Below are positions 14,339-44,848 of a stretch of 64,000 nucleotides of DNA, one piece after another (position 1 is the stretch's first letter; each line of letters begins with the position of its first letter). The notes beneath the pieces were generated by a model that was not told the DNA's origin, ran no database searches, and worked only from the letters and a program-made list of their open reading frames with translations. Made by a program: the position numbers and the translations under genes. The DNA is from Deferrisomatales bacterium. Lineage in GTDB: Bacteria > Desulfobacterota > Deferrisomatia > Deferrisomatales > JACRMM01. The stretch lies in the NCBI GenBank assembly GCA_033551855.1, contig JAWSUI010000003.1:44092-108091 (forward strand). Direction: 5' to 3'.

Positions 14339-14575
14339 CTAACCTCCTCTCGCCTGCTCCTTCTCCAGTGCGTGCACGGGACAGGCGGTGCGCCACCTGC
14401 AGTATCCCTTGGGATGGGCGCAGCGGGGAGGAGAGAGGGGGATGTCCCGCGCAGCCCTTTGGCAGTGGTAGAGCTTGCCGGGGTGGCGGGCCCCAGACAG
14501 ATCCACGGTCGCGTCACCCCCGCCCGGGGGGGGAGGGTTCGCTGCGGCCAGAAAGGCGCTGTCGATGACCGTCAT
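14339..14575 (-). CDS. hypothetical Cys-rich small protein (78 aa) heading the T2SS operon
   Basis: ATG start and coding-like codons. Four Cys, including a ...CPVHA ferredoxin-like ending. Only a weak RBS. Confidence 0.35.
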   Translation of the reverse strand: MTVIDSAFLAAANPPPPGGGDATVDLSGARHPGKLYHCQRAARDIPLSPPRCAHPKGYCRWRTACPVHALEKEQARGG

Positions 14576-14664: not shown

Positions 14665-14720
14665 CCCGGCCGTCCCTGGGTGGGGAAACCCGTCATCCCC
14701 CGGAAGACCCCAAGAACGGC
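14665..14720. repeat. degenerate partial copy of the 3' module of the 203-nt element
   Basis: By hand alignment about 39 of 54 positions match 30898-30950. The match includes a 16/17 block, CCCGG(C/T)CGTCCCTGGG. Confidence 0.45.
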
Positions 14721-14744: not shown

Positions 14745-14947
14745 GGTTCTTCCGCTAAACGACCGGGTGGGCCCGCCCACTCCGGCAGACGAGGCCGGAC
14801 TGCACGGTAGGTGTTCTCCCCCGCCGCGTCCGGAATCCTCGCGGCATCGCGACTCCCGAAGCGGCTGCTCACGTCGAGCGGCCGTCCGCCTACGTGGTCG
14901 GGCCCACCCGATCGTCCCTGGACACGAGGACCCGGTCATTTCCCGGA
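14745..14947. repeat. 203-nt structured non-coding element, copy A (unclassified)
   Basis: Aligns without indels to 30736-30938, with 22 substitutions. Contains a 17-nt long-range inverted repeat with one mismatch. Confidence 0.8.
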
Positions 14948-14983
14948 TGATCTCAAATTGTGGCGCTCGCCTGGGGGCACGGC

Positions 14984-16117
<1,134 letters not shown>

Positions 16118-23291: not shown

Positions 23292-23687
23292 CTACCCGAG
23301 GCGTTCCCGGATGAAATCCACCACCGCGGTGGTATCGGTGCCGGGCAAGAAGATCTCGGCAAACCCTACGTCCTTGAGGGACGGGATGTCCTCCATCGGG
23401 ATGATCCCCCCCCCGAAGAGCAGAAGCTCTGCTTTCCCCTTGCGGCTCAGCCCTTCCGCCACCCGCGGAAACAGAACCATGTGCGCCCCGGAGAGGCACG
23501 ACAACCCCACCACATCCACGTCTTCTTGGACGGCGGCAGCCACGATCTTCTCCGGCGTCTGGCGAATCCCTGTGTAGATGACTTCCATCCCGGCATCCCG
23601 CAGGGCCCTGGCCACGACTTTGGCTCCCCGGTCGTGTCCGTCGAGACCCGGCTTGGCGATCAGGACGCGGATCTTTTTCTGAGCCAT
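23292..23687 (-). CDS. methylmalonyl-CoA mutase, small B12-binding subunit
   Basis: DxHxxG cobalamin-binding motif ([12 protein letters not shown]). 131 aa. Confidence 0.9.
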
Positions 23688-23742
23688 CGTGACTTCCTCC
23701 CTGGCCCTCAGATGGGACCTTTCGAACCCGTGACGCTGGCGC

Positions 23743-25404
<1,662 letters not shown>

Positions 25405-25437
25405 GGGTCGTCTCCTTCCGGTTGCCGGCGTCGCGGC

Positions 25438-25884
25438 TCACCCGCCGATGGTCATCAGCACTTCCCCCACCCCCACGTCCTGGCCCTTGGCGACCTTGAC
25501 CTCGGAGACGGTCCCGGCCACGTGGGCCTTGATCTCGTTCTCCATCTTCATCGCTTCCATCACCAGCACGGTGTCGCCGACCTCGACCGCGTCGCCCACC
25601 TTGACCGCCACGCTCAGAATGTGGCCCGGCATCGGGGCGGTGATCACCTCTCCCGCCCCCAAGACGGGAGCGGCGGGTGCCGCGGGCGCGGCGATGGGGG
25701 CGCGGGGCGGCGGGGCTGCCGGAGCGGGGGTCGCCGCGGGGGTCGGGGTCGGGGCCGCACCCCCTGCGGGAATCTCCACCTCGTAGGGCACGCCGTTTAC
25801 GGTGACGCTGGCGCCGGTGCCGGAGATCCGGCCGATCTCCACCCGGTACGGATTGCCGTTGATGACCAAATCGTAGCGGCTCAT
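25438..25884 (-). CDS. stand-alone biotin carboxyl carrier protein (1.3S-like)
   Basis: Ala/Pro linker followed by a biotinyl domain with EAMKMENEI. Confidence 0.88.
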   Translation of the reverse strand: MSRYDLVINGNPYRVEIGRISGTGASVTVNGVPYEVEIPAGGAAPTPTPAATPAPAAPPPRAPIAAPAAPAAPVLGAGEVITAPMPGHILSVAVKVGDAVEVGDTVLVMEAMKMENEIKAHVAGTVSEVKVAKGQDVGVGEVLMTIGG

Positions 25885-25941
25885 GCGCGTCGGCTCCTTC
25901 TGGTGTCGGCTCGCGTGGTCCCGGGCCGGAGCCCGGCTCGC

Positions 25942-29900: not shown

Positions 29901-30599
29901 TCAGCTCCCCTTCGCCAGCACCGCAAGAACCTTTGCACCCCCCGCGGGACCGTGGGCCAGGAGGCGGTGCCGCAGCGTCGATTCGAAGTATACGCTGTCC
30001 CCTTGCCGGAGGACGATCCGCTCCCGGTCCAAGAGGAGCTCGGCCTCGCCCTCGAGGACGAGGAGAAACTCCTCTCCCTCGTGGCTGTACAGGGTCTGCT
30101 CATCCCGCATCCCTGCATCCACCGAGAGGAGGAACGGCTCCATGATCTTGTCCCTCTTCCTGTGGGTGAGGGCGTGGTAGGTGTAGCCGTGGTCGCCCCC
30201 GGTGCTCGAGATCACCCGGGTGACGGCCGGCCGCGCCTCCCGGCGGATCACCTCGTAGGCCTCTTCGGGGCCTTCGTCGCGGAAGAAGTAGCCCACCCGC
30301 ACGCCGAGGACCTTCGCGATCCTGGCCAGCGTGGCGATGGGGGGAGAGACGTTGTTGTTCTCCACCTGGGAGATGAGGGCCGGGGAAAACCCCGTCTCGT
30401 CAGCCACCTCCTGGAGGGTCTTCTTCCGGGTCTGCCGCAAGGCCTTGATCTTCGCCCCGATGTGGAACTCCTCCGGGGCGCCTTCCCGGACCCCCGCCGG
30501 CGGCCTCCTCGAGGCCCCCGGACGCTGAGCGCGCTTGCGTCCTCCTTGGGCTTTGGAATCGGACGACGAAGCTCGAGACACGCGGGGATCCTGGGCCAC
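29901..30599 (-). CDS. XRE-family HTH plus cupin-domain transcriptional regulator
   Basis: HTH_3 (LRQTRKKTLQEVADETGFSPALISQVENN) followed by a cupin beta-barrel. The start is uncertain: GTG 30599 or GTG 30581. The ORF-track start at 30674 lies inside the predicted -35. Confidence 0.8.
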   Translation of the reverse strand: MAQDPRVSRASSSDSKAQGGRKRAQRPGASRRPPAGVREGAPEEFHIGAKIKALRQTRKKTLQEVADETGFSPALISQVENNNVSPPIATLARIAKVLGVRVGYFFRDEGPEEAYEVIRREARPAVTRVISSTGGDHGYTYHALTHRKRDKIMEPFLLSVDAGMRDEQTLYSHEGEEFLLVLEGEAELLLDRERIVLRQGDSVYFESTLRHRLLAHGPAGGAKVLAVLAKGS

Positions 30600-30645: not shown

Positions 30646-30674
30646 ATTCTATGCAAAGTCACCGGGCAGGTCAA
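30646..30674 (-). promoter_or_regulatory. sigma70 promoter TTGACC-17 nt-TAGAAT for the XRE-cupin/methylmalonyl operon
   Basis: Near-consensus hexamers read on the minus strand: -35 at 30669-30674 and -10 at 30646-30651. Confidence 0.55.
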
Positions 30675-30677
30675 GAA

Positions 30678-30718
30678 GTCTTTAGCAAGAATAAAACGTC
30701 TTTAGCCCAGCTAAAAGC
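30678..30718. promoter_or_regulatory. candidate operator: GTCTTTAGC direct repeat (20-bp phasing) plus an inverted GCTAAAAGC
   Basis: Exact 9-mers at 30678-30686 and 30698-30706. A near-inverted copy at 30710-30718. Immediately upstream of the -35 in an AT-rich patch. Confidence 0.4.
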
Positions 30719-30735
30719 AACTGGCGCCGACAAGA

Positions 30736-30938
30736 GGTTCTTCCGGTAAACGACCGGGTGGGCCCGCCCCCTCCGGCGGACGATGCCGGACTGTACGGTA
30801 GGTGCGCTCCCGCGCCGCAGCCGGAATCCTCGCGGCATCGCTGCTCCCGAAACGGCTGCCCCCGTCGAGCGGCCGTCCGCCTGCGTGGCCGGGCCCACCC
30901 GGTCGTCCCTGGGCACGAGCACCCGGTCGTTTGCCGGA
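30736..30938. repeat. 203-nt structured non-coding element, copy B (unclassified)
   Basis: Indel-free alignment to 14745-14947. A perfect 17-bp long-range inverted repeat pairs 30750-30766 with 30890-30906. Confidence 0.8.
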
Positions 30939-30971
30939 AAAACCACAAGAAAGCCCCTCTGCACGAGGGGC
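30939..30971 (-). terminator. intrinsic terminator of the IclR-family gene
   Basis: Minus-strand GCCCCUC-GUGCA-GAGGGGC followed by UUUCUUGUGGUUUUU. Confidence 0.65.
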
Positions 30972-31066
30972 CTCCCATCGAGCCGAGGGGACTCGGAGTT
31001 TCACTGCGAAGACTCTTTCGGGGAATGACGGGGGTGGCGGGTACTGGACGAGCCTCTACGAAGGAC

Positions 31067-31861
31067 CTAACCCTCCTGCGACACCTCGTACCCCAGTCGG
31101 GAGGAGAGCTTGCGGCCCGCCTCCAACGCCAGGGGGGCGAGCTCGGTCTCGATCCGGTCTTCGGTGAACCGGTAGGCCGGGCCCGAGATCGACAGGCCCG
31201 CCACCACGCGGCGCGTGTAGTCCCGAACCGGAACGCCCACGCACCGGATGCCCTCGTCGTATTCCTCGTCGTCCAGGGCAAAACCCGTCTGGCGTATCCG
31301 CTCGAGCTGCTGCAACAACTGGGCTCTGTCGCTGATGGTGTGCTGGGTGTACCTCTTCATGGGGCTGTCGCTCAGAATCCGGTCCACCTCGTCGAGGGAT
31401 TCGAAGGCGATCTGGGCCTTGCCCACTGCCGAGCAGTACACGGGCAGCCCGACACCGACTCGCGAAATGACCCGGACGGGCCGAGTGGCCTCCACTACGT
31501 CCACGTATACCACCCGGTCGTCCCGAAGGACGCCCAGGTAGGACGTCTCGTTGCACCGTTCGACGATCTCCTCGAGAATGGGGCGCGCCATCTTCAACAA
31601 CCCCATGTGCTTGATGAAGACCTGCCCCAACTCCAAGACCTTCAATCCCAGCCGATAGTTGCCGGTAACCTTGTTCTGCTCCATGTAGCCGCGGCTCTCG
31701 AGGGTAGCGAGAAGCCGGAACACATTATTCTTGTGAAGCCCCAGTCGTTTGGAGAGCTCCGTCACCCCGAGCTCCGTGTCCTCGCCCCGAAATTCCTCGA
31801 GGAGATCCAGGCCGTTGGTTACCGACTGGATGATGTAGCTGGATTTCTTTCTCTTGCCCAC
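31067..31861 (-). CDS. IclR-family transcriptional regulator
   Basis: N-terminal wHTH (LGVTELSKRLGLHKNNVFRLLATLE) and a C-terminal IclR effector domain. GTG 31861 chosen; the start is uncertain. Confidence 0.85.
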   Translation of the reverse strand: MGKRKKSSYIIQSVTNGLDLLEEFRGEDTELGVTELSKRLGLHKNNVFRLLATLESRGYMEQNKVTGNYRLGLKVLELGQVFIKHMGLLKMARPILEEIVERCNETSYLGVLRDDRVVYVDVVEATRPVRVISRVGVGLPVYCSAVGKAQIAFESLDEVDRILSDSPMKRYTQHTISDRAQLLQQLERIRQTGFALDDEEYDEGIRCVGVPVRDYTRRVVAGLSISGPAYRFTEDRIETELAPLALEAGRKLSSRLGYEVSQEG

Positions 31862-32240: not shown

Positions 32241-33122
32241 TCAGTCCTGGAGCCAGGAGTGGGAATAGAGGACGTCGCCGTTGAGGACCTTGAAGGTCCT
32301 GTAGAGCACCTTCTCGGCGTCCGTGGTCGGGGCGGGGTCCTGCCCGTCCATCAGCTTTGCCACGTAGTCGACCTCAGCCTGCCGTTTGCCTTGGCAAAGG
32401 TCCATCATGTCCTTGTCGTACGCGTCGACGATCGCGGACTCCTGCCCCAGGTTGTACAGCATCATGAGGTACACGCCGTTGAGGATCGGCCGGAGGTCGT
32501 TCGGCGCGCCGTTGGAGACGTTGGACAGCCCGCAGGTGTTTGTCGCCCCGGGGACGATGTCCTTCACCATCGGCAGGAACTCCATGTACGCCTTCACCTG
32601 GTTGATGTCCACCGAGACCGGCAGGACGATGGGGTCCACCCAGTACCGGGCGTGCTCGATCCCGAGGTCGTCGCCCATCGCCATGATGGTCGAAAGAGCC
32701 ACGGCGCGCTCGCTGGCATCCCGCGGGATGCCCTCCTCGCTCATGGTCAGCGCCACGAAGTCGGCGTCGTACTTCTTCACCAGCGGCAGCCGCTCCTGCA
32801 TGCTCTGGGGCTGAGCCGAGATGGAGTTGACCAGGGCCCGCTCGTTGCACACCTTCAGGCCCGCCTCCACCGCCAGGGTGTTGGTGGTGTCCAGGGCCAG
32901 GCGCACGTCCTTCTTGACCTCTTGGACGGTCTTGACGAGCCACTCCATGACCTCGTCCCCGGCCTTGCGGGCCGGCCCGAGGTTCAGGTCCAGCATGTCG
33001 GAGCCCCTCTCGAGCTCCTCCTGCGCCATCTGCTGGATCGGCCCCTTGTCCTTCTCCCGGATCGCAGGCCCGATCGTCTTGGACATGATGTTGATGCTCT
33101 CGGCGATTGTGTAGATCTTCAT
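32241..33122 (-). CDS. acsE: methyltetrahydrofolate:corrinoid/Fe-S protein methyltransferase
   Basis: Pterin-binding TIM barrel. Last gene of the acs cluster. Confidence 0.9.
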   Translation of the reverse strand: MKIYTIAESINIMSKTIGPAIREKDKGPIQQMAQEELERGSDMLDLNLGPARKAGDEVMEWLVKTVQEVKKDVRLALDTTNTLAVEAGLKVCNERALVNSISAQPQSMQERLPLVKKYDADFVALTMSEEGIPRDASERAVALSTIMAMGDDLGIEHARYWVDPIVLPVSVDINQVKAYMEFLPMVKDIVPGATNTCGLSNVSNGAPNDLRPILNGVYLMMLYNLGQESAIVDAYDKDMMDLCQGKRQAEVDYVAKLMDGQDPAPTTDAEKVLYRTFKVLNGDVLYSHSWLQD

Positions 33123-33184
33123 TCTGCGCGTCCTCCTGAGGCAAAAAGGGTCACGGGCCCTGCAACGCCATCGGCGAAGGCCGG

Positions 33185-33215
33185 GGGGGGAGAGGCCGCC
33201 GCGGCCTCTCCCCCC
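33185..33215 (-). promoter_or_regulatory. 14-bp GC-rich intercistronic hairpin between acsC and acsE
   Basis: 33185-33198 pairs perfectly with 33202-33215 around a 3-nt loop. No U tail. Confidence 0.6.
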
Positions 33216-33224
33216 TTACCCGGC

Positions 33225-34583
33225 CTATCCGGCCTTGGCAGCGTAGTCCTTGAGGAACTTCGGAAGATCCGCCGCCTCCCGGGGTCCGATGATCACGTCC
33301 CACCCCTCGCCGAGCTCCTCCTGGAACTCGCCGGAGAGCTGGGCCACGTAGCCCGGAATGATGATCTTCTTGTGCCCCACCTTCTCTGTGATGTCGGTCT
33401 TCTTCACGAAGGGGGCCATGGCGTCCGCGACGAACTTGCCCGCCGACCACGCGGTGAGCACGCTCATCCCCTCGGTGTCCATGATCAGCAGCCAGGTGGG
33501 CACCCGGCTGGCCTCGACCTCGGCGCTCACCACGAAGTACGTCAGCGCAAAGTTCGTGGTGATGATCACCGGGCTGGTCGGGCCGGGGTTGTTGATCTCG
33601 TAGATCCCCTGATCCATGGTCATGGGCCGCTGCGGGTCCGTGTAGATGTTCAGCCGGTTGACCAGGAGGGGCAGGCTGACCGCCGGGTCGAGGCTGCCGA
33701 GAACCACCACGCCGGCGTACTTGTCCATCAGGACCGTGGCGTAAGCGGCCTGGAGCTCCTTGTGGTCGGTCATGGCGCAGGGGAAGGCGATGGTCGGAAA
33801 GCCCAGGGCCCGGAACTTCTTGTCCAGGGCGGCCCGCCGGATTGCGATGTTGGCGGTGACGGTCTCCCGGAGGCCCTTCCAGCCGGTGTCGAGCAGGACC
33901 TCCTTCAGGCCCGCGGCGACGAACTTCTCTCCCACCGCAGCCAGGTCGTCAAGGGTGTCCCCCTTCGCAACCACGGCGCAGCCGAACTCCTTCGCCATCT
34001 GCACGAAGGAGTCGACGGTCTCTGCGGTGGCCGCGTGCAGCGCGAACTTCTTGCCCTTGATCGCCTCCGCCGCCGCCTTCAGGGTATCGACGCTCTCGGA
34101 GGAGAGGATCAGCCCCTTCTCCGTGGCGCCGGCCACCTTCTTCGCCAGCTCGACGAAGGAGCCCTGGTCCTTCTTCTCGTCCCACAGGAAGGCGAAATTG
34201 GGCTTCAGGGTGAGACCCACCCGCTCGAAACCGATCCCGTTGAGGAGCTTCACCTCGGCATCGACGACCGCCGGGTCGGTGCTGTTGGTGAGCGCCACGG
34301 CGAGGCCGGTGGGATTCACGAAGGTCTTCTCGTGGCGGTACTTCACGGTCTCGCCCCCCACCTTGTGGGCGTCGGCGCCCTGGCCGAGCTCCACCACCCG
34401 GATCGGGGGGGCGCTCGCCTCGGAGAGCTTCGCCTGGGCCTCCTCCGAGACGTAGGGACACTTGGAGAGCTCTGCCTTGCCCGCGGCCAGCTTCATCGCG
34501 AAGGCGAGGCACGTGGGCTCACCGCAGTCCTTGCAGTTGGTCTGCGGGAGCAGTTTGTAGATCTGAATGCCGGTCAGTCCCAT
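33225..34583 (-). CDS. acsC: corrinoid/iron-sulfur protein large subunit
   Basis: N-terminal [4Fe-4S] motif CKDCGEPTCLAFAMKLA. 452 aa. Confidence 0.93.
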   Translation of the reverse strand: MGLTGIQIYKLLPQTNCKDCGEPTCLAFAMKLAAGKAELSKCPYVSEEAQAKLSEASAPPIRVVELGQGADAHKVGGETVKYRHEKTFVNPTGLAVALTNSTDPAVVDAEVKLLNGIGFERVGLTLKPNFAFLWDEKKDQGSFVELAKKVAGATEKGLILSSESVDTLKAAAEAIKGKKFALHAATAETVDSFVQMAKEFGCAVVAKGDTLDDLAAVGEKFVAAGLKEVLLDTGWKGLRETVTANIAIRRAALDKKFRALGFPTIAFPCAMTDHKELQAAYATVLMDKYAGVVVLGSLDPAVSLPLLVNRLNIYTDPQRPMTMDQGIYEINNPGPTSPVIITTNFALTYFVVSAEVEASRVPTWLLIMDTEGMSVLTAWSAGKFVADAMAPFVKKTDITEKVGHKKIIIPGYVAQLSGEFQEELGEGWDVIIGPREAADLPKFLKDYAAKAG

Positions 34584-34648
34584 GGGCCGAATCTCCTTTC
34601 GTCAGCAAACGCGCAGTTCGCAGCGTCTCGATCGATCCCCGCAGCTGC

Positions 34649-34676
34649 CCCCGGGGAGGGAAACCCCTCCCCGGGG
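34649..34676 (-). promoter_or_regulatory. 12-bp perfect intercistronic hairpin between acsB and acsC
   Basis: CCCCGGGGAGGG-AAAC-CCCTCCCCGGGG. No U tail. Confidence 0.6.
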
Positions 34677-34682
34677 AACGGC

Positions 34683-36887
34683 CTACATCATGGGGTCCAT
34701 CTCCAGGGCCGGGTGCCCCACCTTCTGCATGAACTCCAGCACCTCTTCCTCGGTGGTGGCGTTCTCTTCCGTGGCGATCTTGTCGTAGAGATCGGCGCAC
34801 CCTTCCTCCGCACCCCGCTTCTCGAGGACCTCCTTCAGCGACTCCTTGAGCGCCTTGGGAAGCCAGGCGATGCGCTTGATCCCGCCGTCGGCGCTGATGA
34901 ACTTCTTCGAGCCGATGTAGAACTTGGACATCCCCACGAAGCCCGGCGTCTGGGCCCCGCCGCCCACCGAGCCCGCCAGCGTCGAGAAGGGCATGCCGCA
35001 GGGGGTCGCCCCCGCATAGTCCCGGTCCACGACCATGACCGCGTTGGACATGGGCAGCAGCACCGTGATGGCCTCGAAGCACCCGCAGGAGGTCATGGGG
35101 TCCACCATCAGGGAGTACGCGCTGAAGGAGGCGATCGCGTCGTGGGAGTTCTTCAGCACGAACTCGTTGACGCCTTTCCACTGCCCGAGGTTGTCGTCGA
35201 GGGTGTCGCCCTTCTTGATGGGCTGGTTCGGGCCGGTGGGGGTGATCTCGAAGGCGGCCTTGCCGTCGAGCCAGTTGTACGCGCCGCACAGGCCGGGCCG
35301 CTCGGGGCTGATCACGCACACGTGGTCCGGCGCGAAGGACTGGCAGAGCGTGCAGCTGTAGAAGGTGTCGACGCTCTCGTCGGTCATGGAGCCGAGGCGC
35401 TCCTCGCGCTCCTTGTACACCGCCCTGGCCTCCGACATGAGCTCTTTGACCTTGGCCGGGTCCGTGTAGACCGTCACCTGGACCTTGTCGAGGATCTTTC
35501 CGAACTCGTTGTGGAACTTCGCGTGCAGGATCGTTCCGAAGTGCTTCAGGCTGAAGCCGGCGGCAAAGGCCTTCTTCGAGATCCGAAGCCACACGATGTC
35601 GCGCTGGCCGATGTGGAGCACACCCTCCGCGCCGTTCAGGAGGTGGTGGATCTGACGCTCGAGGATCGGCTCGAAGTCGGGCTGCATGCTGCGGCCCGCC
35701 ACATCGACCCAGATGGCAAGGGGGTAGGTCTTGCCCTCCTCCATGTCCTTCAAGTCCGGGCCCACCACCGCGAACTTCCCGTCCTCGACCTCGTCCAGCG
35801 GCTTCATCTGGCAGAACTCGAAACCCTCGGACTTGGGTCCGGCGAGCTCCACGTGCATCTGGTCCCTCGCGATCCGCTCGCCTTCGAAGGCCGGGGAGTG
35901 GGAGACCGGGATGTCGATCTTCGAGATGTGGATCTTCAGGCCGCGCACCTCGATGGCCTTGGCCACGATCTGGTCGTGGGGGATGCTCGACACCACGTGC
36001 TCGTAGGTGCACACCCCCGTGACGAGGATCTCGGGGATGCCGGAGTCGGCGATGGTCGGGAAGCCGTAGTTGATGGCCCCCGCGGCGGCCGCGTACCACT
36101 CGTCGCTGACCTCGCCCAGGGCGAGCACGAAGGCGAAGACCCGCAGCTTGTTGTACCGCAGGATCCCCGCATAGTCGCCCGGCTGGATGCCGCCGAAGGC
36201 CATGGCGGCCCGAGTGGCGAAGCCCACGGCGTGGATCGCCGCCGAGGTGTCGCGGCCGAAGGGGACGAGCCGGGTCGGCCACCCGACCTGCACGCCCTCC
36301 TCCACGAGCTGCTCGGCGAAGGTCTTGCCGTTGTACTCGGAGGCCATGAAGACGTAGATGCCCTTCTCCTGCAGCTCCTTGGCGATCTTTGCCGCCGTGG
36401 CGCTGTCCGGGGCCGAGCCCACCACCGCGGCGAAGCCGGGCGCCGAGCCGTCCACGAACTCCACGCCGCGCTTGCGCATGATGACGTCGTCGGCAGCCCC
36501 CAGCCAGATGTTGTCGGGGCTCGGGTCCTCGCCCAGGGTGTAGGGGACCGGCTCCTGCAGGTACTTGAGGGCCTCCTCCATGTCGTAGCAGAAGAGGGTC
36601 TGCATGCCGGCGTCGAGGCCGTGGCCCAGGTAGGGCACCCACAGGTTCTCGGAAACCTGAGGGGGCAGGAGGCTCTTGCACTTGTCGAGCACCGGCAGCA
36701 TGTCGCCGAGCTTCTCGACCTTGTGGCCCAGGATGCCGTAGATGACCGGCAGGAAGTAGCCGGTGTTGGGGAGCTTGACCTCCTTGTCGGCCCCGTGCTT
36801 GGCGATGGCGTCGGTGACCTTCTTCTCCACGCGGGCGTAGATCTGGTGCGCCCCGCGGATGACTCCGGAAAGGATGATCTTGGACAT
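34683..36887 (-). CDS. acsB: acetyl-CoA synthase (A-cluster subunit)
   Basis: 734 aa with the A-cluster Cys-Gly-Cys motif (MTSCGCFEA). Confidence 0.95.
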   Translation of the reverse strand: MSKIILSGVIRGAHQIYARVEKKVTDAIAKHGADKEVKLPNTGYFLPVIYGILGHKVEKLGDMLPVLDKCKSLLPPQVSENLWVPYLGHGLDAGMQTLFCYDMEEALKYLQEPVPYTLGEDPSPDNIWLGAADDVIMRKRGVEFVDGSAPGFAAVVGSAPDSATAAKIAKELQEKGIYVFMASEYNGKTFAEQLVEEGVQVGWPTRLVPFGRDTSAAIHAVGFATRAAMAFGGIQPGDYAGILRYNKLRVFAFVLALGEVSDEWYAAAAGAINYGFPTIADSGIPEILVTGVCTYEHVVSSIPHDQIVAKAIEVRGLKIHISKIDIPVSHSPAFEGERIARDQMHVELAGPKSEGFEFCQMKPLDEVEDGKFAVVGPDLKDMEEGKTYPLAIWVDVAGRSMQPDFEPILERQIHHLLNGAEGVLHIGQRDIVWLRISKKAFAAGFSLKHFGTILHAKFHNEFGKILDKVQVTVYTDPAKVKELMSEARAVYKEREERLGSMTDESVDTFYSCTLCQSFAPDHVCVISPERPGLCGAYNWLDGKAAFEITPTGPNQPIKKGDTLDDNLGQWKGVNEFVLKNSHDAIASFSAYSLMVDPMTSCGCFEAITVLLPMSNAVMVVDRDYAGATPCGMPFSTLAGSVGGGAQTPGFVGMSKFYIGSKKFISADGGIKRIAWLPKALKESLKEVLEKRGAEEGCADLYDKIATEENATTEEEVLEFMQKVGHPALEMDPMM

Positions 36888-36905
36888 TCTCGTGCCTCCC
36901 TATCC

Positions 36906-38855
36906 TTAGACCTTGAGCTCGCGGCGGGCTTCCATGTCGAAGAGCTTGCGCTCTTGCTTCTCGTGGATTCCAAGCGCCTCGCGCTTCGCGTTGATGTGGT
37001 CGATCATCAGCTTCGCCATCTTGTAGGGGTCGGGCTCCACGGCCCACTTGCCCCCGAGGTCGTTCTCCAGCCCGCCGAAGAGGTAGTCGGCAAACTTGGT
37101 ACCCGGCACGTGGGGCAGGGTCACCCCGAAGACCGTGAAGACACCGCTCGCCACGAAGTAATGGCCGATGGCGATGGCCTTCTCGCTCATGTACTCGGGC
37201 GCGGCGCCCGCGATGGGCAGGTCGCTGATGTCGTCGCCCAGCCCGCCGGTCCTCACCATCTCCGAGACCGCGACCAGGATGCGGCTGTTATCCACGCAGG
37301 CGCCGCAGTGGAGCACCGGCGGCATGCCCACCGCCTCACACACCTCCCGGAGGCCCGGTCCGCAGTACTTGGCGGCCGCCTCGGGCTGCATGAAGCCCTG
37401 CTTGGCCATGGCGATGGCCGAGCAACCCGTCTGCACCACCAGCACGTCGTTCTTCAGCAGCTCCTTCACGAGCTCGATGTGCACCCAGTCGTGCTTGACC
37501 CGGGGGTTGTTGCACCCCACCACGCCGGCCACGCCGCGGATGCGCCCGTTGATGATGTTTTCGTTCAAGGGCGTGTAGCTCGAGCGGAAGCTGCCGCCCA
37601 GCATGTAGTTGATGGTCTCGTGGGAGAACCCGCCGACCATCGCCGTCTTGCGGTCCGGGATCTGGACCTTCTTGCGGTTCTTGAAGTTGTTGACGCCCTC
37701 CATCATGAGCTTCACGCCGGCTTCCCGCGCGCCGTGGTCGCCGTGGAACTCGATGTGCTGGGCGCCCTCGATCTTGCACCGATAGTTCGTGGTGAGGAAC
37801 TTGGTGTGGTAGCACTTGGCGAGGTCCGAAAGGCCCTGCTGGATGCACTGCACGTCCACCATCATCGCGTCCACGGCGCCGGTGATGATCGCCGAGTCGC
37901 ACTGCATGAAGTTTCCGGCGTGGGGGACGCCCCGGCGCACGAGCTGCTCGTTGCCCGAGCAGCACATCCCCACCAGGTTGATCCCCTCGGCGCCCACGGC
38001 CTTGGCCTTGGCCACGAGCTCCGGGTCGTCGGCGAGGCGCACCATCATGTCCAGGAGCTGGGGCTCGTGGCCGTGGACGATGACGTTGACCTCCTTCTCC
38101 TTGAGCACCCCGATGTCGATCTCGGCCCGCACCGGCCGCGGTGTGCCGAACATGATGTCGGAGAGCTCCGTGGAGATCATCGCCCCGCCCCAGCCGTCCG
38201 CCAGGGCGCAGCGCGCCGCGCCGAGCACGAGGTTCCGGTAGTCCTGGTCGACACCCATGTGGGTGCGGTGCATCATCTCCACGACCTCGCGATCCACACC
38301 GCGAGAGAGCACCCCGAGCTCCTTCCACTTCTCGAAGCGCTTCTTCGGCGCCCGCTCGAAGAGCTTCAAGTGCCCGTGCTGCTGGCTGAACTGCCCGAGG
38401 CATGCCTCGGCGAGCTCGATGGCCACGTCCTTCTGCTCCCGGCCCTCGGTCGGCACGCCCATGTGCTTGGCGAACTCCACCAGCTTGCCCGGCTCCTTGA
38501 TCTCGAAGTCCGGGTTCTCGCCCTTGGCCACGGTGAGGAAGAGCTCGCTCATCTCCCGGCCGTGGTCGGAGTGGGCCGCTGTGCCGGCGGCCACGGCTCG
38601 GGCGAACCCGCGGGCCTGGAAGGTGTCGATATTGGCGCCGCACACGCCGACTTTCTCATACGGTGCCTTGCTCGACAGGCGGCAGGGCCCCATGTAGCAG
38701 TGCTTGCAGCAGGCGTTCTGGGCCCCGATCGGGCAGGGGCTGATCTCGTCGGCCCGGTCGAAGGCGGTCTTCACCCCCTCCTCCCGCGCCTTGGTGAGCA
38801 TCTGCGCCGTAGACTCGCAGACGGTGATGTCCTGGATCTCGCGAAGCTTCGCCAT
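36906..38855 (-). CDS. acsA: anaerobic Ni-CO dehydrogenase catalytic subunit
   Basis: 649 aa. N-terminal B/D-cluster cysteines (CPIGAQNACCKHCYMGPC) and a C-cluster region (GMCCSGNE). Confidence 0.95.
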   Translation of the reverse strand: MAKLREIQDITVCESTAQMLTKAREEGVKTAFDRADEISPCPIGAQNACCKHCYMGPCRLSSKAPYEKVGVCGANIDTFQARGFARAVAAGTAAHSDHGREMSELFLTVAKGENPDFEIKEPGKLVEFAKHMGVPTEGREQKDVAIELAEACLGQFSQQHGHLKLFERAPKKRFEKWKELGVLSRGVDREVVEMMHRTHMGVDQDYRNLVLGAARCALADGWGGAMISTELSDIMFGTPRPVRAEIDIGVLKEKEVNVIVHGHEPQLLDMMVRLADDPELVAKAKAVGAEGINLVGMCCSGNEQLVRRGVPHAGNFMQCDSAIITGAVDAMMVDVQCIQQGLSDLAKCYHTKFLTTNYRCKIEGAQHIEFHGDHGAREAGVKLMMEGVNNFKNRKKVQIPDRKTAMVGGFSHETINYMLGGSFRSSYTPLNENIINGRIRGVAGVVGCNNPRVKHDWVHIELVKELLKNDVLVVQTGCSAIAMAKQGFMQPEAAAKYCGPGLREVCEAVGMPPVLHCGACVDNSRILVAVSEMVRTGGLGDDISDLPIAGAAPEYMSEKAIAIGHYFVASGVFTVFGVTLPHVPGTKFADYLFGGLENDLGGKWAVEPDPYKMAKLMIDHINAKREALGIHEKQERKLFDMEARRELKV

Positions 38856-38891
38856 GGTGTGTTTCCTCCCTCAGTAGTGTTCGCGACGGCC

Positions 38892-39842
38892 TCAGGCCAT
38901 CACGTCGTCGATCACCTTCTTCAGGGCCCGAACCGACTCCGGGTGGCGCAGAATCAGGATGTCCGCCCCCGCCGTGAGTAGGTCTGTCGCCGTCACCGTC
39001 TCCCAGAGGACGCCCCGGGTCTTCACGTCCCCGAAGCTCGGCTCCTCGGCCTCGGGGATGCCGGCCTCCTTGGTCTTCCAGCAGTACTTGCCGATGTCGC
39101 AGATCAGGGGGGACTGCATCTTCTCGTCCCCTTGCTTGAGGCCGGTGAGCCGATCACGCTCCATGACCGAGTAGCTGTACTCGATGCCGTACCCCAGGGC
39201 GCCGGTGGAGGGGTCCATGAGGATCTTGTCCATGGGCACGCCCAGGTTGTTGAGCAGGATGTTGAGCTGCTTGGCCATGTTGACGTCGATGGGGGTCTGA
39301 GCCACGACCGTGTGTCCGTAGCCGATGGCGGCGCCGCCGATCTTCTTGTAGTTCTCTTCCACCGCCGGGCCGATCACCAGGTTCATGCCCTCGCACACCT
39401 CGGCCACCTTGGCCAGGGTCTCCGCATCCTTCTCGCCGTTCTCGCAGCCCCACACGATCAGCGGCACCGGGATGGCCTCCGCCACTTTCTTCGCCAGGGC
39501 GGCGGCTTCCGCGGCGCTCGTGTTGAGGCCGTTGGGGTCGGTGCTGGCGAGCTGCAGGCAGATGAGATCTGCCCCATACTCGTTGAGACACTTCAGGGCC
39601 CAAGCCACGGGGTCGCCGAGGACGTCCGCGAACGGCGCCTTGGCGTTCTCGGCCCAGGTCTCGGTGACCGCGGCCTTGTCGTAAACCTCCATCGCCACGA
39701 GGGGGCGGTTGGGGAACTGACCCTCGAAGTTGCACAGGGGCATGGCGTTCTGGCCTCCGACCTTCTTGGCCTTCGCGCCCGCGCCGAGGGCAACCTCGAC
39801 GATCTTTCCGGCGTAGGAGTCTTTCGGGAACTCAAATGCCAT
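38892..39842 (-). CDS. acsD: corrinoid/iron-sulfur protein small subunit
   Basis: 316-aa TIM-barrel subunit, adjacent to CODH/ACS. Confidence 0.9.
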   Translation of the reverse strand: MAFEFPKDSYAGKIVEVALGAGAKAKKVGGQNAMPLCNFEGQFPNRPLVAMEVYDKAAVTETWAENAKAPFADVLGDPVAWALKCLNEYGADLICLQLASTDPNGLNTSAAEAAALAKKVAEAIPVPLIVWGCENGEKDAETLAKVAEVCEGMNLVIGPAVEENYKKIGGAAIGYGHTVVAQTPIDVNMAKQLNILLNNLGVPMDKILMDPSTGALGYGIEYSYSVMERDRLTGLKQGDEKMQSPLICDIGKYCWKTKEAGIPEAEEPSFGDVKTRGVLWETVTATDLLTAGADILILRHPESVRALKKVIDDVMA

Positions 39843-39901
39843 GGTTCACGCTCCTTTCGTCCCTCGGCACGCGGCCTCGGACAGGTGTGATGTGCGGGCC
39901 G

Positions 39902-40660
39902 TCAGGCCTGCTCCTCCCTCGGTACGTAACGCTCCAAAATCTCAACCACGGCCCGGTAGGCCGCGGACTCCTCGGGGAGTTGGAAGGTAGGCCTGCCCTC
40001 GAGGTCGAAGGCGGTCACGTTCGGATCGGCCGGCACCACCCCCGCCAACTCCAGGCCCAGACGCTCGATCTCCCGGCGGGTGGGCTCCTCCAGCCCGCCG
40101 CTCACCCGGTTCACGATCACGGCAAGGCGGCCGATGTCGAGTTTGAGCTCCCCTACCAGGTCTCGAATCCTCCCGGCCGCCTGGATGCCCCGCACGGAGG
40201 AGTCCGTGACGGCGAGCACGAGATCCATGTTGTGGGTGGTGCGCCGGGAGAGGTGCTCCATTCCCGCTTCGTTGTCCAGGACGACGTAGGCGTAGTTGTC
40301 CGCCATCTCGTCCACGTACTTCTTGCACAGGGTGTTCGCGTAGCAGTAGCAGCCCGGCCCCTCCGGGCGCCCCATCACGACCAGGTCGAAGCCGTCGGCC
40401 TCGATCAGACACTCCTGGGTGCGGTAGTTGATGTAGGCGTCCTTCGTCATGCCCTGGGGTACGCTGCCCAGATTCTCCCGGATCTGGCCGATCGTCTGGT
40501 GGACCGAGAGGCCCAGCACCTCGTTCAGGTTCATGTTGGCGTCGGCGTCCACGGCCAGGACCCGCCCCTGCCCCCGCGTCACGAGGTGACGGAGGATGAG
40601 TCCGGCCACGGTGGTCTTGCCCGTTCCCCCCTTGCCCGCCACGGCGATGTGGAACCCCAT
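39902..40660 (-). CDS. cooC: CooC/AcsF-type nickel-insertion ATPase
   Basis: Deviant Walker A GKGGTGKTT and a CxC metal motif (GCYCYAN). ATG at 40660, 2 nt after the upstream stop. Confidence 0.9.
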   Translation of the reverse strand: MGFHIAVAGKGGTGKTTVAGLILRHLVTRGQGRVLAVDADANMNLNEVLGLSVHQTIGQIRENLGSVPQGMTKDAYINYRTQECLIEADGFDLVVMGRPEGPGCYCYANTLCKKYVDEMADNYAYVVLDNEAGMEHLSRRTTHNMDLVLAVTDSSVRGIQAAGRIRDLVGELKLDIGRLAVIVNRVSGGLEEPTRREIERLGLELAGVVPADPNVTAFDLEGRPTFQLPEESAAYRAVVEILERYVPREEQA

Positions 40661-40662
40661 TC

Positions 40663-42681
40663 TCAGGCCTCCGCTCTGGCGGCCGCCCGCAAGAGGGCCT
40701 GGAGCCGCCGGGTCTGCTGCGGAAAATCCTCCATCCGCGTGTGGGGAAGGAACAGGGCCGCCACATACTCCTCCATGTAGATGGGGGACGCCGAGAGCTC
40801 GATGTTCGTGATCATGGTGGCGATGGACTCCGCCTCCTCGATCTTGTCCCGGTAGAGAGTGGCGAGCGTGCACCCGGCCAGGCTGGTGTTGCCCCCGTAG
40901 CGCACGATCTCCGGGTTCACCTCCGGCAGGAGGCCGATGGCCATGGCCTTCTCCACGTCGATGTACTGGCCGAACCCGCCGGCGATGATGATCTTCTGCA
41001 CGTCCGCGAACGAGAGCCCCACGCTCTTCAGCAGGACCGAGCACGCCGCGTAGATGGAGGCCTTGGTCCGGATCAGGTTGTCCATGTCCGGCTCGGAGAT
41101 GACGATGTCCTGGTCGAGCTGGCTCTCGCCCTTCCAGCACAGGACATACTCCCAGCCGGTCTCCCCCTCCCGCAGGCGCGGCGACCTCTCTGCCAGCTCC
41201 TGGTTGAACTTTCCGTTCGGGGAGATGAGCCCCACCTCCTGGAACTCGGCCAGGCAGTCGATCATGCCGGAGCCGCATACACCTTTGGGCTTCGTCTGAC
41301 CGATGGTGAGCATCATCGGCTCGAAGTTCGCGGGATTGATGCGGACCTGCTCGATCGCGCCGAAGGTCGCCCGCATCCCAAACTTCACCCCTCCCCCTTC
41401 GAACGCCGGCCCGGCCGAGGCCGAGGCCGACACCATCCAGTCCTGGTTCCCGATGACGATCTCCCCGTTCGTGCCCACGTCCAGGAAGAGCGTCAGCTCC
41501 GGGTTCAGGTGAATGCCGGTGGCCAGGATCCCGGCAGTGATGTCGCCCCCCACGTAGGAGGCGACACAGGGCATGGCGTACCCCAGCATGTGCTCCGGCA
41601 CATGGATCCCCAACTCGTGGAGGCGGAACGGCGGGAAAAAGTTCGCCGCGGGCACGTAGGGGGCCTCTCGGATGTGCTTGGGGTTCAGGGACAGGAACAG
41701 CTGCGTCATCGTCGTGTTGCCGCCGAACACCGCATGGGTGACCTCGGCGCCCTGCACTCCGGCCTTCTCCAAGGCCTCCTCCAGGACCCCGTTGATCGTC
41801 TTCACCACCCGCTTCTGGAGGGCCTCCAGCCCCCCCGGCTTGAGGGCCGCCACGATGCGGGTGATGACGTCCTCGCCCATCGACACCTGGGAGTTGTAAT
41901 CCCCCGCCCGAGCGATCTCGCTCCCCTCATTGACGTCCAGGACGGCCGCGTGGACGGTGGTCGTTCCGATATCGACGGCCAGGGCGAAGGTCCGGTCCCG
42001 GGTGTCCCCCGGTTCGACCCGCAGGAGCCGCTTCCCCCTGTGGGTGTGCAGCACCGTGGCGGTGACCTTCCACTCCCCCTGGCGCAGCGCCGAGGACAGG
42101 GACCGCAGGACGTGGATGTCGGTGCCGATCCTCTCGATCCCGTGGTCCACCTTGAGCACCTGCCCCAGCCGACCCATGTCGGAGACGTTGTTCTCCTCCG
42201 TCGGGGGCGCCAGCTCGCAGAAGTACTTCACCACGGGGGGCTCGGCCTTCTGATCCGCGAATTCTAACCCCAGGCGGGCCGCCGAGAGGACGTGCTCCAC
42301 GGTGGCCCGGGTGGCTTTCCGCGCCAGCACCGCCTTCTCGTAGCGGGACTCCACGGGGACGTCCACGACCAGATCCCCCAGGATCTCGGTCTGGCATGCC
42401 AGGCGGTAGCCTTCGTCCCACTCCGCCTTCGAGAGCTTCGAAGAGGTCTGCGTCCGGTGCTCGCCCTCCCGGATCTTGACCTTGCACTTGCCGCAGGTTC
42501 CGGCCCCCCCACAGGAGGCATTGACGTGCACACCCGCGACCATCGCGACCCGGAGGAGATTCTCCGCCTCGCGGTAGACGTCGATGGTCGCGTCGTCCGG
42601 CAGGAAACGGACCGTGTGGCGCTTCTGGGGCAAGACGTCTCCCGGCAAAAGGGACGGGTGGGGAGGGTCAACCCTCCCCAC
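40663..42681 (-). CDS. reductive activator of the corrinoid/Fe-S protein (RACo/AcsV-like)
   Basis: N-terminal plant-type 2Fe-2S ferredoxin (CGGAGTCGKCKV) and an ASKHA-type ATPase body. GTG start at 42681 is uncertain. Confidence 0.85.
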   Translation of the reverse strand: MGRVDPPHPSLLPGDVLPQKRHTVRFLPDDATIDVYREAENLLRVAMVAGVHVNASCGGAGTCGKCKVKIREGEHRTQTSSKLSKAEWDEGYRLACQTEILGDLVVDVPVESRYEKAVLARKATRATVEHVLSAARLGLEFADQKAEPPVVKYFCELAPPTEENNVSDMGRLGQVLKVDHGIERIGTDIHVLRSLSSALRQGEWKVTATVLHTHRGKRLLRVEPGDTRDRTFALAVDIGTTTVHAAVLDVNEGSEIARAGDYNSQVSMGEDVITRIVAALKPGGLEALQKRVVKTINGVLEEALEKAGVQGAEVTHAVFGGNTTMTQLFLSLNPKHIREAPYVPAANFFPPFRLHELGIHVPEHMLGYAMPCVASYVGGDITAGILATGIHLNPELTLFLDVGTNGEIVIGNQDWMVSASASAGPAFEGGGVKFGMRATFGAIEQVRINPANFEPMMLTIGQTKPKGVCGSGMIDCLAEFQEVGLISPNGKFNQELAERSPRLREGETGWEYVLCWKGESQLDQDIVISEPDMDNLIRTKASIYAACSVLLKSVGLSFADVQKIIIAGGFGQYIDVEKAMAIGLLPEVNPEIVRYGGNTSLAGCTLATLYRDKIEEAESIATMITNIELSASPIYMEEYVAALFLPHTRMEDFPQQTRRLQALLRAAARAEA

Positions 42682-42705
42682 CCAGACCGCAATGGAATGA
42701 ACGGT

Positions 42706-44439
42706 CTAGAACAGGCCCTTGATCCGGCCGGTATCCGTGTCGATGTCCACGTACCTGTACGCCGGGTCCGCGGACAGTCCCGGCATGGTGCGCATGACGC
42801 CCAACAGCGGGTACAGGAACCCCGCCCCCAGGCTGGCGCGGATGTCGCGGATCGGCACGCGGAAGCCCCGCGGGCGTCCCTTGAGGGTGAGGTCGTGGCT
42901 CAGGGACAGATGGGTCTTCGCCATGCACAGGGGCAGCTTGTCGTAGCCGAGCTTGGTGAACTGGGCGATCTTCTGCTCCGCCTCGGGCATGTAGTCCACG
43001 CCGTCGGCACCGTAGATCTCCGTGGCGATCACCTCGATCTTCTGCTTGATGGACCAGTCGTCCGGGTACAGGAACTTGAAGTCCTTGGGCTCGTCACAGG
43101 CCTTCACGACCTCCTGAGCGGCATCGGTCGCCCCGGCGCCGCCGTGCATCCACACCTCGATCGGCACCGACGCGCTGGCGCCGGCCTCCTCGGCCCGCTT
43201 CTGGATGATGGAGATCTCGTCGTCCCGGTCGAAGGCGAACCGGTTGATGGTGTTGACCACCGGCACCCCGAACTTCTTCATGTTCTCGATGTGCTTCTCG
43301 AGGTTCTCGATACCCTTCTCGAGGTAGGCGTAGTGCTCCTTCTGCAGTTCCGTGGCCAGCTGCTTCGGGGTGTACTTGGAGATCTCGGAGTAGGGCATGC
43401 CGTGCATCTTGAGGGCGCGCACCGTACAGGTGATGACCACGCAGTCCGGGCTGAACCCGCCGTAGCGGCAGGTGATGTTCATGAACTTCTCGGCGCCCAT
43501 GTCCGCCGCGAAGCCGGACTCGGTGACGGTGTAGTCGCCGAGCTTCAGCGCCACCCGGTCGGCGACGATGGAGTTGTTGCCGTGGGCGATGTTGGCGAAC
43601 GGGCCGGCGTGCACCAAGGCCGGGTTCCCTTCGAGGGACTGGATCAGGTTGGGCTTGAGGGCGTCCTTCATGAGGGCGGTCATCGCCCCGGCCACCTGGA
43701 GGTCCTCGGTGGTCACCGGCTTCCCGTCGTAGGTGTAGGCCAGCAGGATGCGCCCCATGCGCGCGCGCAGATCCGCCAGATCCGTGGCCAGGGCCAGGAT
43801 GGCCATGACCTCGGAAGCCACGGCGATATCGAACCCCCCCTGCCGCGGGATGCCGTTGAGCTTGCCGCCCAAACCGACCACGATCTCCCGGAGGCAGCGG
43901 TCGTTCAGGTCCACCACGCGGTTCCACTGGATGGTCAGGGGGTCGATGTTCAGCGGGTTGCCGTGCATCAGGCTGGTGTCGAGGGCGGCGGAACAAAGGT
44001 TGTGGGTGATGGATACGGCGTGAATGTCCCCGGTGAAGTGGAGGTTCAGGTCCTCCATGGGCACGATCTGGGAGTACCCGCCCCCGGCGGCGCCGCCCTT
44101 GATGCCGAACACCGGCCCCAGGCTGGGCTCCCGCAGGGCCAGCATGGCGCTCTTCCCGATCTTGTTCAGGCCCTCATAGAGCCCGATGGACGTGACCGTC
44201 TTGCCCTCTCCCAGCGGGGTGGGCGTGCAGGCGGTGACGTCGATCAGCTTGCCGTTGGGCTTGCTCTCCAGACGCTTGAGCAGCGCCATGAAGTCGATCT
44301 TTGCCTTATAGTTGCCGTAGTACTCCAGTTCGGACTCCAGGATGCCTGCTTTCTCGGCGATCTCCCGGATGTGCTTCATCTTGTGGCTCTGGGCGATCTC
44401 GAGATCCGAGGGGACGTTCTTGGGCGTCAGCTTGGCCAT
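42706..44439 (-). CDS. fhs: formate-tetrahydrofolate ligase
   Basis: TPTPLGEGKT nucleotide-binding motif. ATG at 44439 is preceded by GGAGGGAGGA. The ORF-track 5' extension is rejected. Confidence 0.96.
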   Translation of the reverse strand: MAKLTPKNVPSDLEIAQSHKMKHIREIAEKAGILESELEYYGNYKAKIDFMALLKRLESKPNGKLIDVTACTPTPLGEGKTVTSIGLYEGLNKIGKSAMLALREPSLGPVFGIKGGAAGGGYSQIVPMEDLNLHFTGDIHAVSITHNLCSAALDTSLMHGNPLNIDPLTIQWNRVVDLNDRCLREIVVGLGGKLNGIPRQGGFDIAVASEVMAILALATDLADLRARMGRILLAYTYDGKPVTTEDLQVAGAMTALMKDALKPNLIQSLEGNPALVHAGPFANIAHGNNSIVADRVALKLGDYTVTESGFAADMGAEKFMNITCRYGGFSPDCVVITCTVRALKMHGMPYSEISKYTPKQLATELQKEHYAYLEKGIENLEKHIENMKKFGVPVVNTINRFAFDRDDEISIIQKRAEEAGASASVPIEVWMHGGAGATDAAQEVVKACDEPKDFKFLYPDDWSIKQKIEVIATEIYGADGVDYMPEAEQKIAQFTKLGYDKLPLCMAKTHLSLSHDLTLKGRPRGFRVPIRDIRASLGAGFLYPLLGVMRTMPGLSADPAYRYVDIDTDTGRIKGLF

Positions 44440-44818
44440 GGTCCTCCCTCCATCGGGCCTTTCGGCCTCAGCAAGTTGCCCGCGCCAGGAGTGCGCGGTT
44501 TCCCTTGAAAAAAGCGGAACGAAGCAAGTCCGGGGTCCGGCCGGGGTGCACCGTAACCGACCGGCGACCTCGAGGCAACCGATCGCGGAGGCCGAGAGGA
44601 AACCCCGAATCCCGTGACCCGAGAGGGACGTGCCGAACACTCTCCGCGAGGCAGACCGGAGACCCAAGCGCCCCTTGGGTCCGGCCCGATCCAAAGGCGG
44701 ACGTAGATGGCGGCGGCGCGGCAACCCGCGGGCGGAACCCGGCTCTCGCGGTCGCGGCGCCCCCTCCGGCCTGCAAGGACCTTCGAACGGCTGTTTCCGC
44801 GCAATAGAGGGCGCGGCA

Positions 44819-44848
44819 AGGATACTGAGGCCCAATTTTTGATGTCAA
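44819..44848 (-). promoter_or_regulatory. sigma70 promoter TTGACA-18 nt-TATCCT for the fhs-acs operon
   Basis: Perfect -35 within an AT-richer patch. About 370 nt upstream of the fhs ATG. Confidence 0.5.

Follow-up and report, generated by a model that had tools for sequence, protein, structure and literature searches.

The stretch of DNA analysed here (the window, 64,000 nt) carries an intergenic sequence that folds back on itself along nearly its whole length and is present a second time elsewhere in the window. The original prediction read this sequence as an element with clearly preserved base-pairing and two mutually exclusive 3' arms laid out like a switch, and it assigned neither a functional strand nor a single fold. 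The question raised by the locus was whether it specifies a structured RNA or whether the pairing belongs to the DNA itself. We conclude that both copies are probably remnants of a non-autonomous, non-coding DNA transposon of the MITE type, from a family not described before, in an uncultured bacterium akin to the Deferrisomatales.

Anatomy of the two copies

A unit of 209 bp was found in two copies in the window (copies A and B, Table 1), and no third copy was detected there. Aligned in the same orientation, the copies were 89.2% identical across 203 nt with zero indels. The differences totalled 26 positions, comprising 14 transitions and 12 transversions; the longest run common to both copies was 23 nt, and no 31-mer was shared. 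The homology began exactly at GGTTC, the start of the left terminal repeat (30736), and faded over the last 6 nt. The GC content was 69-73% for the element and 68% for the window.

The two halves of the element are largely reverse complements of one another, and its ends are formed by 25-bp terminal inverted repeats (GGTTCTTCCGG...CCGGAAAAACC), which matched at 23 of 25 positions in copy B versus 18 of 25 in copy A. Relative to the left end, a 24-nt insertion at the right end repeats an 11-nt motif, ACGACCGGGTG. This motif is present once near the left end of each unit and twice, inverted, near the right end, and, when up to one mismatch was allowed, it matched the window 11 times versus 3.2 expected. 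An additional exact copy at 31511-31521 (- strand) falls inside the coding sequence of the IclR-family gene, where 15 nt are identical to the 3' arm of the element, and this copy is probably due to chance.

The sequence facts on which the original prediction was built were all confirmed. The closing helix is present, as ACGACCGGGTGGGCCCG (30750-30766) and 30890-30906 are exactly reverse-complementary, and its 3' arm is duplicated, with CACCCGGTCGT occurring at 30896-30906 and again at 30920-30930. The element was also correctly located, but it ends at 30944 and not at 30938. The proposed alternative partner (30920-30930) forms the inner part of the 25-nt terminal inverted repeat. The duplicated arm is real, but a subterminal repeat of ACGACCGGGTG describes it better than an arm of a switch.

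The hexamer ACAAGA is found exactly at both edges of copy B, and this boundary is sharp because the inverted repeat cannot be extended outward (positions 30735 and 30945 are both A). The chance frequency of such flanks was 4.4e-4 (28/63760), which is the empirical rate of 6-nt flank identity at the spacing of copy B, counted over window positions. No flanking direct repeat was found around copy A, the right terminus of which is degenerate. The segment at 14665-14710 aligned to element positions 162-209, with the alignment stopping at the element terminus. Its score was equalled by 12 of 1000 dinucleotide shuffles and by 3% of random window segments, and this segment is suggestive only of a degraded element right end (p ~0.01-0.03).

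Table 1. Features of the element and of its surroundings in the window
Feature	Position	Strand	Evidence or remark
Copy B, better-preserved 209-bp palindromic unit	30736-30944	.	Homology boundary with copy A; both-strand hairpin, z ~ -6
Left terminal inverted repeat of copy B, GGTTCTTCCGGTAAACGACCGGGTG	30736-30760	+	23/25 match to reverse complement of 30920-30944
Right terminal inverted repeat of copy B, holding the proposed alternative partner 30920-30930	30920-30944	-	23/25
Left ACAAGA, 6-bp direct repeat, putative target-site duplication	30730-30735	.	
Right ACAAGA, 6-bp direct repeat	30945-30950	.	
Inner inverted repeat, 5' arm, holding the 17-nt closing helix 30750-30766	30750-30782	+	29/33 with 30874-30906
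Inner inverted repeat, 3' arm	30874-30906	-	
Copy A, more decayed	14745-14953	.	Homology to copy B ceases at ~14947; terminal repeats 18/25
Possible degraded right-end fragment of the element (weak)	14665-14710	+	35 nt upstream of copy A
Terminator-like hairpin of IclR-family gene	30948-30976	-	Copy B abuts its T-tract
IclR-family gene	31067-31861	-	
Promoter-like site of XRE/cupin regulator gene	30646-30674	-	61 nt beyond the left end of copy B
XRE/cupin regulator gene	29901-30581	-	Start matches the called 226-aa product
mreB promoter, TTGAAC-N18-TAAGAT	14984-15013	+	Conserved in relatives; spacer alignment
mreB start	15083	+	
p55, small Cys-rich ORF	14342-14506	-	

Base pairing, coding capacity and RNA families

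Both strands of copy B folded into a single long imperfect hairpin, with -125.9 kcal/mol (z = -6.1) for the + strand and -130.3 kcal/mol (z = -6.2) for the - strand, and none of 200 shuffles folded as well. Copy A folded more weakly (-108.7 and -118.5 kcal/mol). Conservation of the pairing was evaluated by checking the minimum-free-energy fold of copy B (75 pairs) against copy A. Base-pairing had been described as clearly preserved; however, 17 helix pairs were changed, of which 0 were compensated, 2 remained wobble pairs, and 15 were broken. Three other reference folds, derived from copy A or from the - strand, gave 0 compensatory changes and 9-12 broken pairs. The stems were not depleted in differences, as 18 of the 26 fell at paired positions, which make up 72% of the unit. 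The original prediction had named uncompensated substitutions breaking the proposed helices as the observation that would speak against an RNA, and such substitutions are what was found, as far as two diverged copies allow.

The local observations behind that prediction were reproduced. The hairpin formed by TCCGGC (30772-30777) and GCCGGA (30785-30790) differs between the copies at 30778 and 30784, both within its 7-nt loop, and the transitions listed are wobble-compatible on the strands that were named for them. The conflicting strand signals are also real: on the fold of copy B, 2 changes were compatible with pairing on the + strand and 6 on the - strand, while 9 further changes broke a pair on both. 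A transition within a Watson-Crick pair gives G.U when one strand is read but C.A when the opposite strand is read, and therefore neutral transitions in a DNA palindrome are split between the strands. The inner helix of 37 pairs was less diverged, with 4 of 74 positions differing versus 22 of 135 elsewhere (Fisher p = 0.027), and to judge from this two-copy alignment it could reflect some constraint. Overall, base-pairing is not conserved, and the comparison does not support the inference of a structured or switch-like RNA. The structure-like signal follows from the palindromic design of the DNA and is equal on both strands. For RNA-motif hunting in GC-rich genomes, this calls for caution, as the folding z-scores of a palindromic DNA repeat are very strong on either strand and come with apparent G.U support divided between the two.

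A small protein gene was ruled out. Several reading frames carry stops in copy A, and the majority of the differences between the copies alter the amino acid. The third-position GC of the element frames (0.60-0.79) lay well below that of real genes (0.85-0.95). No protein homologue was retrieved in translated searches, aimed at other copies miscalled as ORFs, using the six concatenated frames (a query probably swamped by low-complexity candidates) or frame 1 of the - strand, and frame 2 of the + strand, searched against 1.84 billion representatives, gave only a 23-residue low-complexity match.

The whole window had no match in Rfam at gathering scores, and around both copies only noise was observed at E values up to 10. 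No promoter or terminator of the element's own was found on either strand. A role as a terminator was rejected because the element has no U-tract of its own. Also rejected were RNAs linked to a reverse transcriptase, such as a retron, and a transposon-end guide RNA (no reverse transcriptase, TnpB or recombinase in the window), as well as an integron attC site (no cassette array).

Genomic setting, relatives and further copies

Copy A is located between p55 and mreB, 239 nt from p55, with its end 30 nt upstream of the mreB -35 hexamer. Copy B is located between the predicted IclR terminator and the predicted XRE/cupin promoter, and it would sit in an untranscribed gap if both of these predictions hold. 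The nearest promoters are faced by opposite ends of A and B; thus, the element has no fixed polarity. The left flank of copy B has a GC content of 46%, which is within the most AT-rich 1% of the 50-nt segments of the window. When the element and one ACAAGA were excised in silico, the IclR terminator hairpin was followed by TTTCTTGT, and, read from this reconstruction, TTTCTTGT is plausibly the original U-tract of that terminator.

No gene for a transposase, a reverse transcriptase or RAYT was found among the scanned window ORFs or the gene calls of the fetched loci; the Pfam scans covered most of the larger window ORFs. No parent insertion sequence with matching ends was present in the window or the fetched loci.

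The surroundings of copy B showed two further features. In the AT-rich stretch directly upstream of the predicted XRE/cupin -35 hexamer, a direct repeat, GTCTTTAGC, is present at 30678-30686 and 30698-30706 (spaced 20 nt), and this pair may be an operator. Two strain differences were observed in the spacer, one between the GTCTTTAGC copies and one just outside the ACAAGA flank of copy B. The IclR regulator bordering copy B adjoins a complete Wood-Ljungdahl-type gene set (32241-44844, - strand), comprising a pterin-binding methyltransferase, two corrinoid Fe-S protein subunits, acetyl-CoA synthase, CO dehydrogenase, the corrinoid activator RACo, and formate-tetrahydrofolate ligase.

The MreB protein of the window was 100% identical to that of the MAG GCA_047921355.1, which is a second strain of the species of the window, and 91% identical to that of Deferrisoma camini. 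Both copies were present in the two sampled strains, each identical to its counterpart, and no insertion polymorphism was seen. Elsewhere, the MAG and the window were ~99.5% identical up to ~23500 and then ~83-85% identical, with 78% over the biotin-carrier gene; high identity was regained around copy B. The diverged stretch (window 23500-25900, L001 18400-20900) looks like a recombined or replaced segment in the methylmalonyl-CoA gene cluster. At the beginning of the window, a patatin-like phospholipase ORF (16-612, - strand) is short (~166-187 aa) and ends abruptly. In the MAG, a second overlapping ORF was called after it, and a 100-N scaffold gap lies just upstream; this ORF is likely frameshifted or a pseudogene.

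Contigs of related species were fetched via MreB homologues (MreB 96-98% identical, DNA ~75-87% identical). In L101 (MreB 96% identical), the type II secretion cluster, gspC, p55 and mreB are arranged in the order observed in the window, and a YgaP-like gene lies between p55 and mreB. L086-L088 have the p55, YgaP-like and mreB part in common with the window and other genes upstream. The mreB promoter, CTTGAAC-N17/18-TAGAAT, was kept in L101 and L086-L088, and its alignment used the spacers of the window, L101, L086 and L085. In these four contigs (L101 and L086-L088), the spacer upstream of mreB is 193-207 nt long and the element is absent, and the corresponding spacer of the window is 507 nt long, including the 209-nt unit. 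This absence from the orthologous site concerns contigs of other species, with a DNA identity of ~75%; within the species of the window, both copies are fixed. On the spacers compared, the element is a gain in the lineage of the window rather than a conserved leader of mreB.

The YgaP-like membrane protein gene is intact in the relatives (70-73 aa, between p55 and mreB). Only its first 12 codons, MTVIDSAFLAAA, are left in the window (14540-14575, - strand), and this deletion adjoins copy A. In L083 and L085, a different element of ~200 nt occupies the same spot upstream of mreB. The presence of different small inserts in sister lineages means that this spot gained inserts repeatedly, and the spacer upstream of the mreB promoter is a possible insertion hot spot.

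A second element of ~190 nt, unrelated to the first, was found at 1786-1975 of the window, where it overlaps the 3' tail of a DinG-like ORF, and also in L083 (776-968) and, on the opposite strand, in L085 (9661-9796). In L083 and L085, it lies in the spacer between the YgaP-like gene and mreB, with 75% identity, and the L085 copy contains a 50-nt insertion. Its sequence includes a long-range inverted repeat (GGGGTCCGGGAG / CTCCCGGACCCC), its ends form an imperfect inverted pair, and no match was found in Rfam. RNAalifold on the 3 sequences showed 4 pairs changed on both sides. This second element represents another mobile repeat or, alternatively, a structured-RNA candidate.

Homologues of the 209-bp unit were searched for in several collections. 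An exact 22-mer from the best-conserved block had no match among 185,579 species genomes, plasmid BLAST gave no match, and a 17-mer and a 20-mer gave only chance matches inside phage genes among viral contigs. The nhmmer profile built from the two copies returned only self-hits over ~1.5 Mb of fetched loci, including five close-relative contigs. A gapped helix pattern had one match in JGI metagenomes, L002, which contains an unrelated palindrome, and a covariance model run on 0.87 Mb returned self-hits and L002 only. L002 (contig Ga0187893_10138850) carries at 954-1144 a near-perfect 190-nt palindrome directly downstream of a gene with a GGDEF-like C-terminus. It was rejected as a homologue, as only the 13-nt core CCGGGTGGGCCCG is in common and this core had been the query; its 33 bits with the covariance model are owed to that core alone.

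No new copy was found in the ~10 kb beyond the window on the same-species contig JBLRWG010000005.1, and the full copies directly seen thus number 2 in ~74 kb of the species. Further copies are indicated indirectly by Logan assemblies, which are built with k = 31 and keep each 31-mer once (PMC12424806). The Logan contigs of SRR32287246 were 99.98-100% identical to the MAG. One same-species contig (L098) ends exactly 30 nt (k-1) inside the left boundary of copy A, which also places the repeat boundary at 14745, and another (L096) breaks off within copy B, 62 nt from its right end. Copies A and B share no 31-mer and the strains are identical there, and therefore such branch points need further copies. 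The contig ends are best explained by copies elsewhere that would share at least 31 nt with A and with B and have other flanks; a drop in coverage over the GC-rich hairpin is the other possible cause and could contribute. When contigs of a k = 31 assembly end exactly k-1 nt within a repeat, they can reveal both hidden copies and exact repeat boundaries. The family appears to be confined to the poorly sampled lineage of the window.

Origin of the element and comparison with known systems

MITEs are shorter than 500 bp, have terminal repeats of ~4-30 bp and carry direct repeats only in younger copies; they target AT-rich intergenic DNA, and their transcripts form stable stem-loops (PMC10969869). 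The element agrees with this architecture in its size of 209 bp without a coding frame and in its 25-bp terminal inverted repeats. Its presence in the window and absence from the mreB spacer of L101 and L086-L088 are evidence of insertion. A flanking duplication is carried by one copy (B) of the two, and A and B occupy unrelated intergenic sites. On the reading as a MITE-type remnant, a transposase encoded elsewhere in the genome would bind the element ends and move the unit in trans, a process in which the 11-nt motif may have a role. Insertion would duplicate 6 bp of the target, and copy B would still carry this duplication. Copy A would be the older one, its right end and many of its stem pairs having decayed, and copy B the younger. 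A read-through transcript of either copy would form a long hairpin, and nothing indicates selection for it. So understood, the result is biologically routine, namely one more small mobile-repeat family in a poorly sampled lineage related to Deferrisoma.

A structured non-coding RNA, present either as a small RNA gene in two paralogues or as a cis-regulatory leader switching between two 3' arms, is decidedly unlikely. Copy B would be functional under this reading, and copy A perhaps a decaying paralogue. The very stable folding (z ~ -6), the better conserved inner helix of 37 pairs (Fisher p = 0.027), the variation of the hairpin 30772-30790 in its loop only, and the position of both copies upstream of a - strand gene when read on that strand (p55 and XRE/cupin) are consistent with it. 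However, no pair was compensated and 9-15 were broken in every fold tested, the fold was equally good on both strands as for palindromic DNA, and neither strand has a promoter or terminator of its own that could be found. Copy B follows a terminator hairpin and precedes the predicted promoter of the next gene, and copy A is 239 nt away from p55. The absence of the unit from the orthologous spacer of four related contigs, the negative covariance-model and nhmmer scans of the relatives' loci, and the lack of an Rfam match even at E = 10 also argue against an RNA family, and an RNA gene has no use for a sharp terminal inverted repeat with a 6-bp duplication flanking it. There is a slim chance that the palindromic insert was domesticated as a regulatory module, acting as an RNA hairpin from either strand, a cruciform or a protein-binding site; if so, the 37-pair inner helix and the triple ACGACCGGGTG would be under selection.

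An origin as a palindromic intergenic repeat of the REP/BIME or ERIC kind, spread by another enzyme (a single-strand transposase of the RAYT or IS200/IS605 type) or by recombination instead of cut-and-paste transposition, is unlikely. Such a repeat might be bound by a protein or form a cruciform close to promoters and terminators. The palindromy of the whole unit and its GC-richness resemble those of REP-type repeats, the copies adjoin a terminator and promoters, ACGACCGGGTG occurs three times per unit with its 11 matches in the window versus 3.2 expected, and copy A lacks a flanking duplication. The 25-bp terminal repeat and the exact 6-bp duplication at copy B point the other way, as do the low density of 2 copies in ~74 kb and the lack of a RAYT or Y1 transposase domain among the proteins scanned in the window and fetched loci. 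It is very improbable that the two copies are the remnant of a one-off local duplication or gene conversion, or att-like ends of a 16-kb segment, belonging to no repeat family. Only two copies are seen, in direct orientation and 16 kb apart, which speaks for it; however, the intervening genes are housekeeping genes (mreBCD, pbp2, rodA, radA and those for methylmalonyl-CoA enzymes), and the order from mreB to radA is the same in relatives without the element. This syntenic housekeeping content led us to reject both att sites and a 16-kb island bounded by the copies. Moreover, a divergence of 11% is too high for recent att sites, the boundaries of the copies coincide with inverted-repeat ends, the 6-bp duplication flanks one copy alone, and the k-1 contig break implies other copies. 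A MITE-type remnant is thus the reading that we favour.

The element was compared with known systems. As in riboswitch-type switches, one segment (30750-30760) can pair with either of two others (30896-30906 or 30920-30930). Unlike riboswitches, the element has no covariation, no Rfam family, and no expression platform in the form of a terminator or of ribosome-binding-site sequestration, and its position and polarity show no constant relation to a regulated gene. With the ERIC/IRU sequences of enterobacteria, it shares the imperfect palindromy of the whole unit and the location in intergenic or transcribed regions near gene ends, but its sequence is unrelated, its host belongs to another lineage, and it has sharp terminal repeats and a flanking duplication. 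REP units are ~20-40 nt long and occur in very high copy number, and elements of the IS200/IS605 type have no terminal inverted repeats and produce no target duplication. The present element is likewise a GC-rich extragenic palindrome near terminators, as are REP/BIME and the palindromes derived from IS200/IS605. It differs from REP in being ~5-10x longer (209 bp) and from both REP and IS200/IS605 in having terminal inverted repeats together with a target duplication, features that do not arise from single-strand transposition, and no RAYT or TnpA(Y1) gene, as would be associated with REP/BIME, was seen nearby.

The element was also compared with prokaryotic MITEs in general, of which the Correia elements are an example. 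MITEs are typically AT-rich, whereas the element is GC-rich (69-73%), and its palindromy spans nearly the whole unit and not the ends alone. It also differs from the known MITE families in showing no sequence similarity in the collections searched and in having only 2 copies directly seen. The target duplication of Correia elements is TA, and that of the element is 6 bp. The Correia element of Neisseria, as originally described, is 204 bp long (PMC10969869), and the element is similarly a non-coding unit of 209 bp with 25-bp terminal inverted repeats. A short putative target duplication is present at the younger-looking copy B and lost at the older-looking copy A. As in MITEs, the element is intergenic, lies beside promoters and terminators, and would give a transcript folding as a long hairpin.
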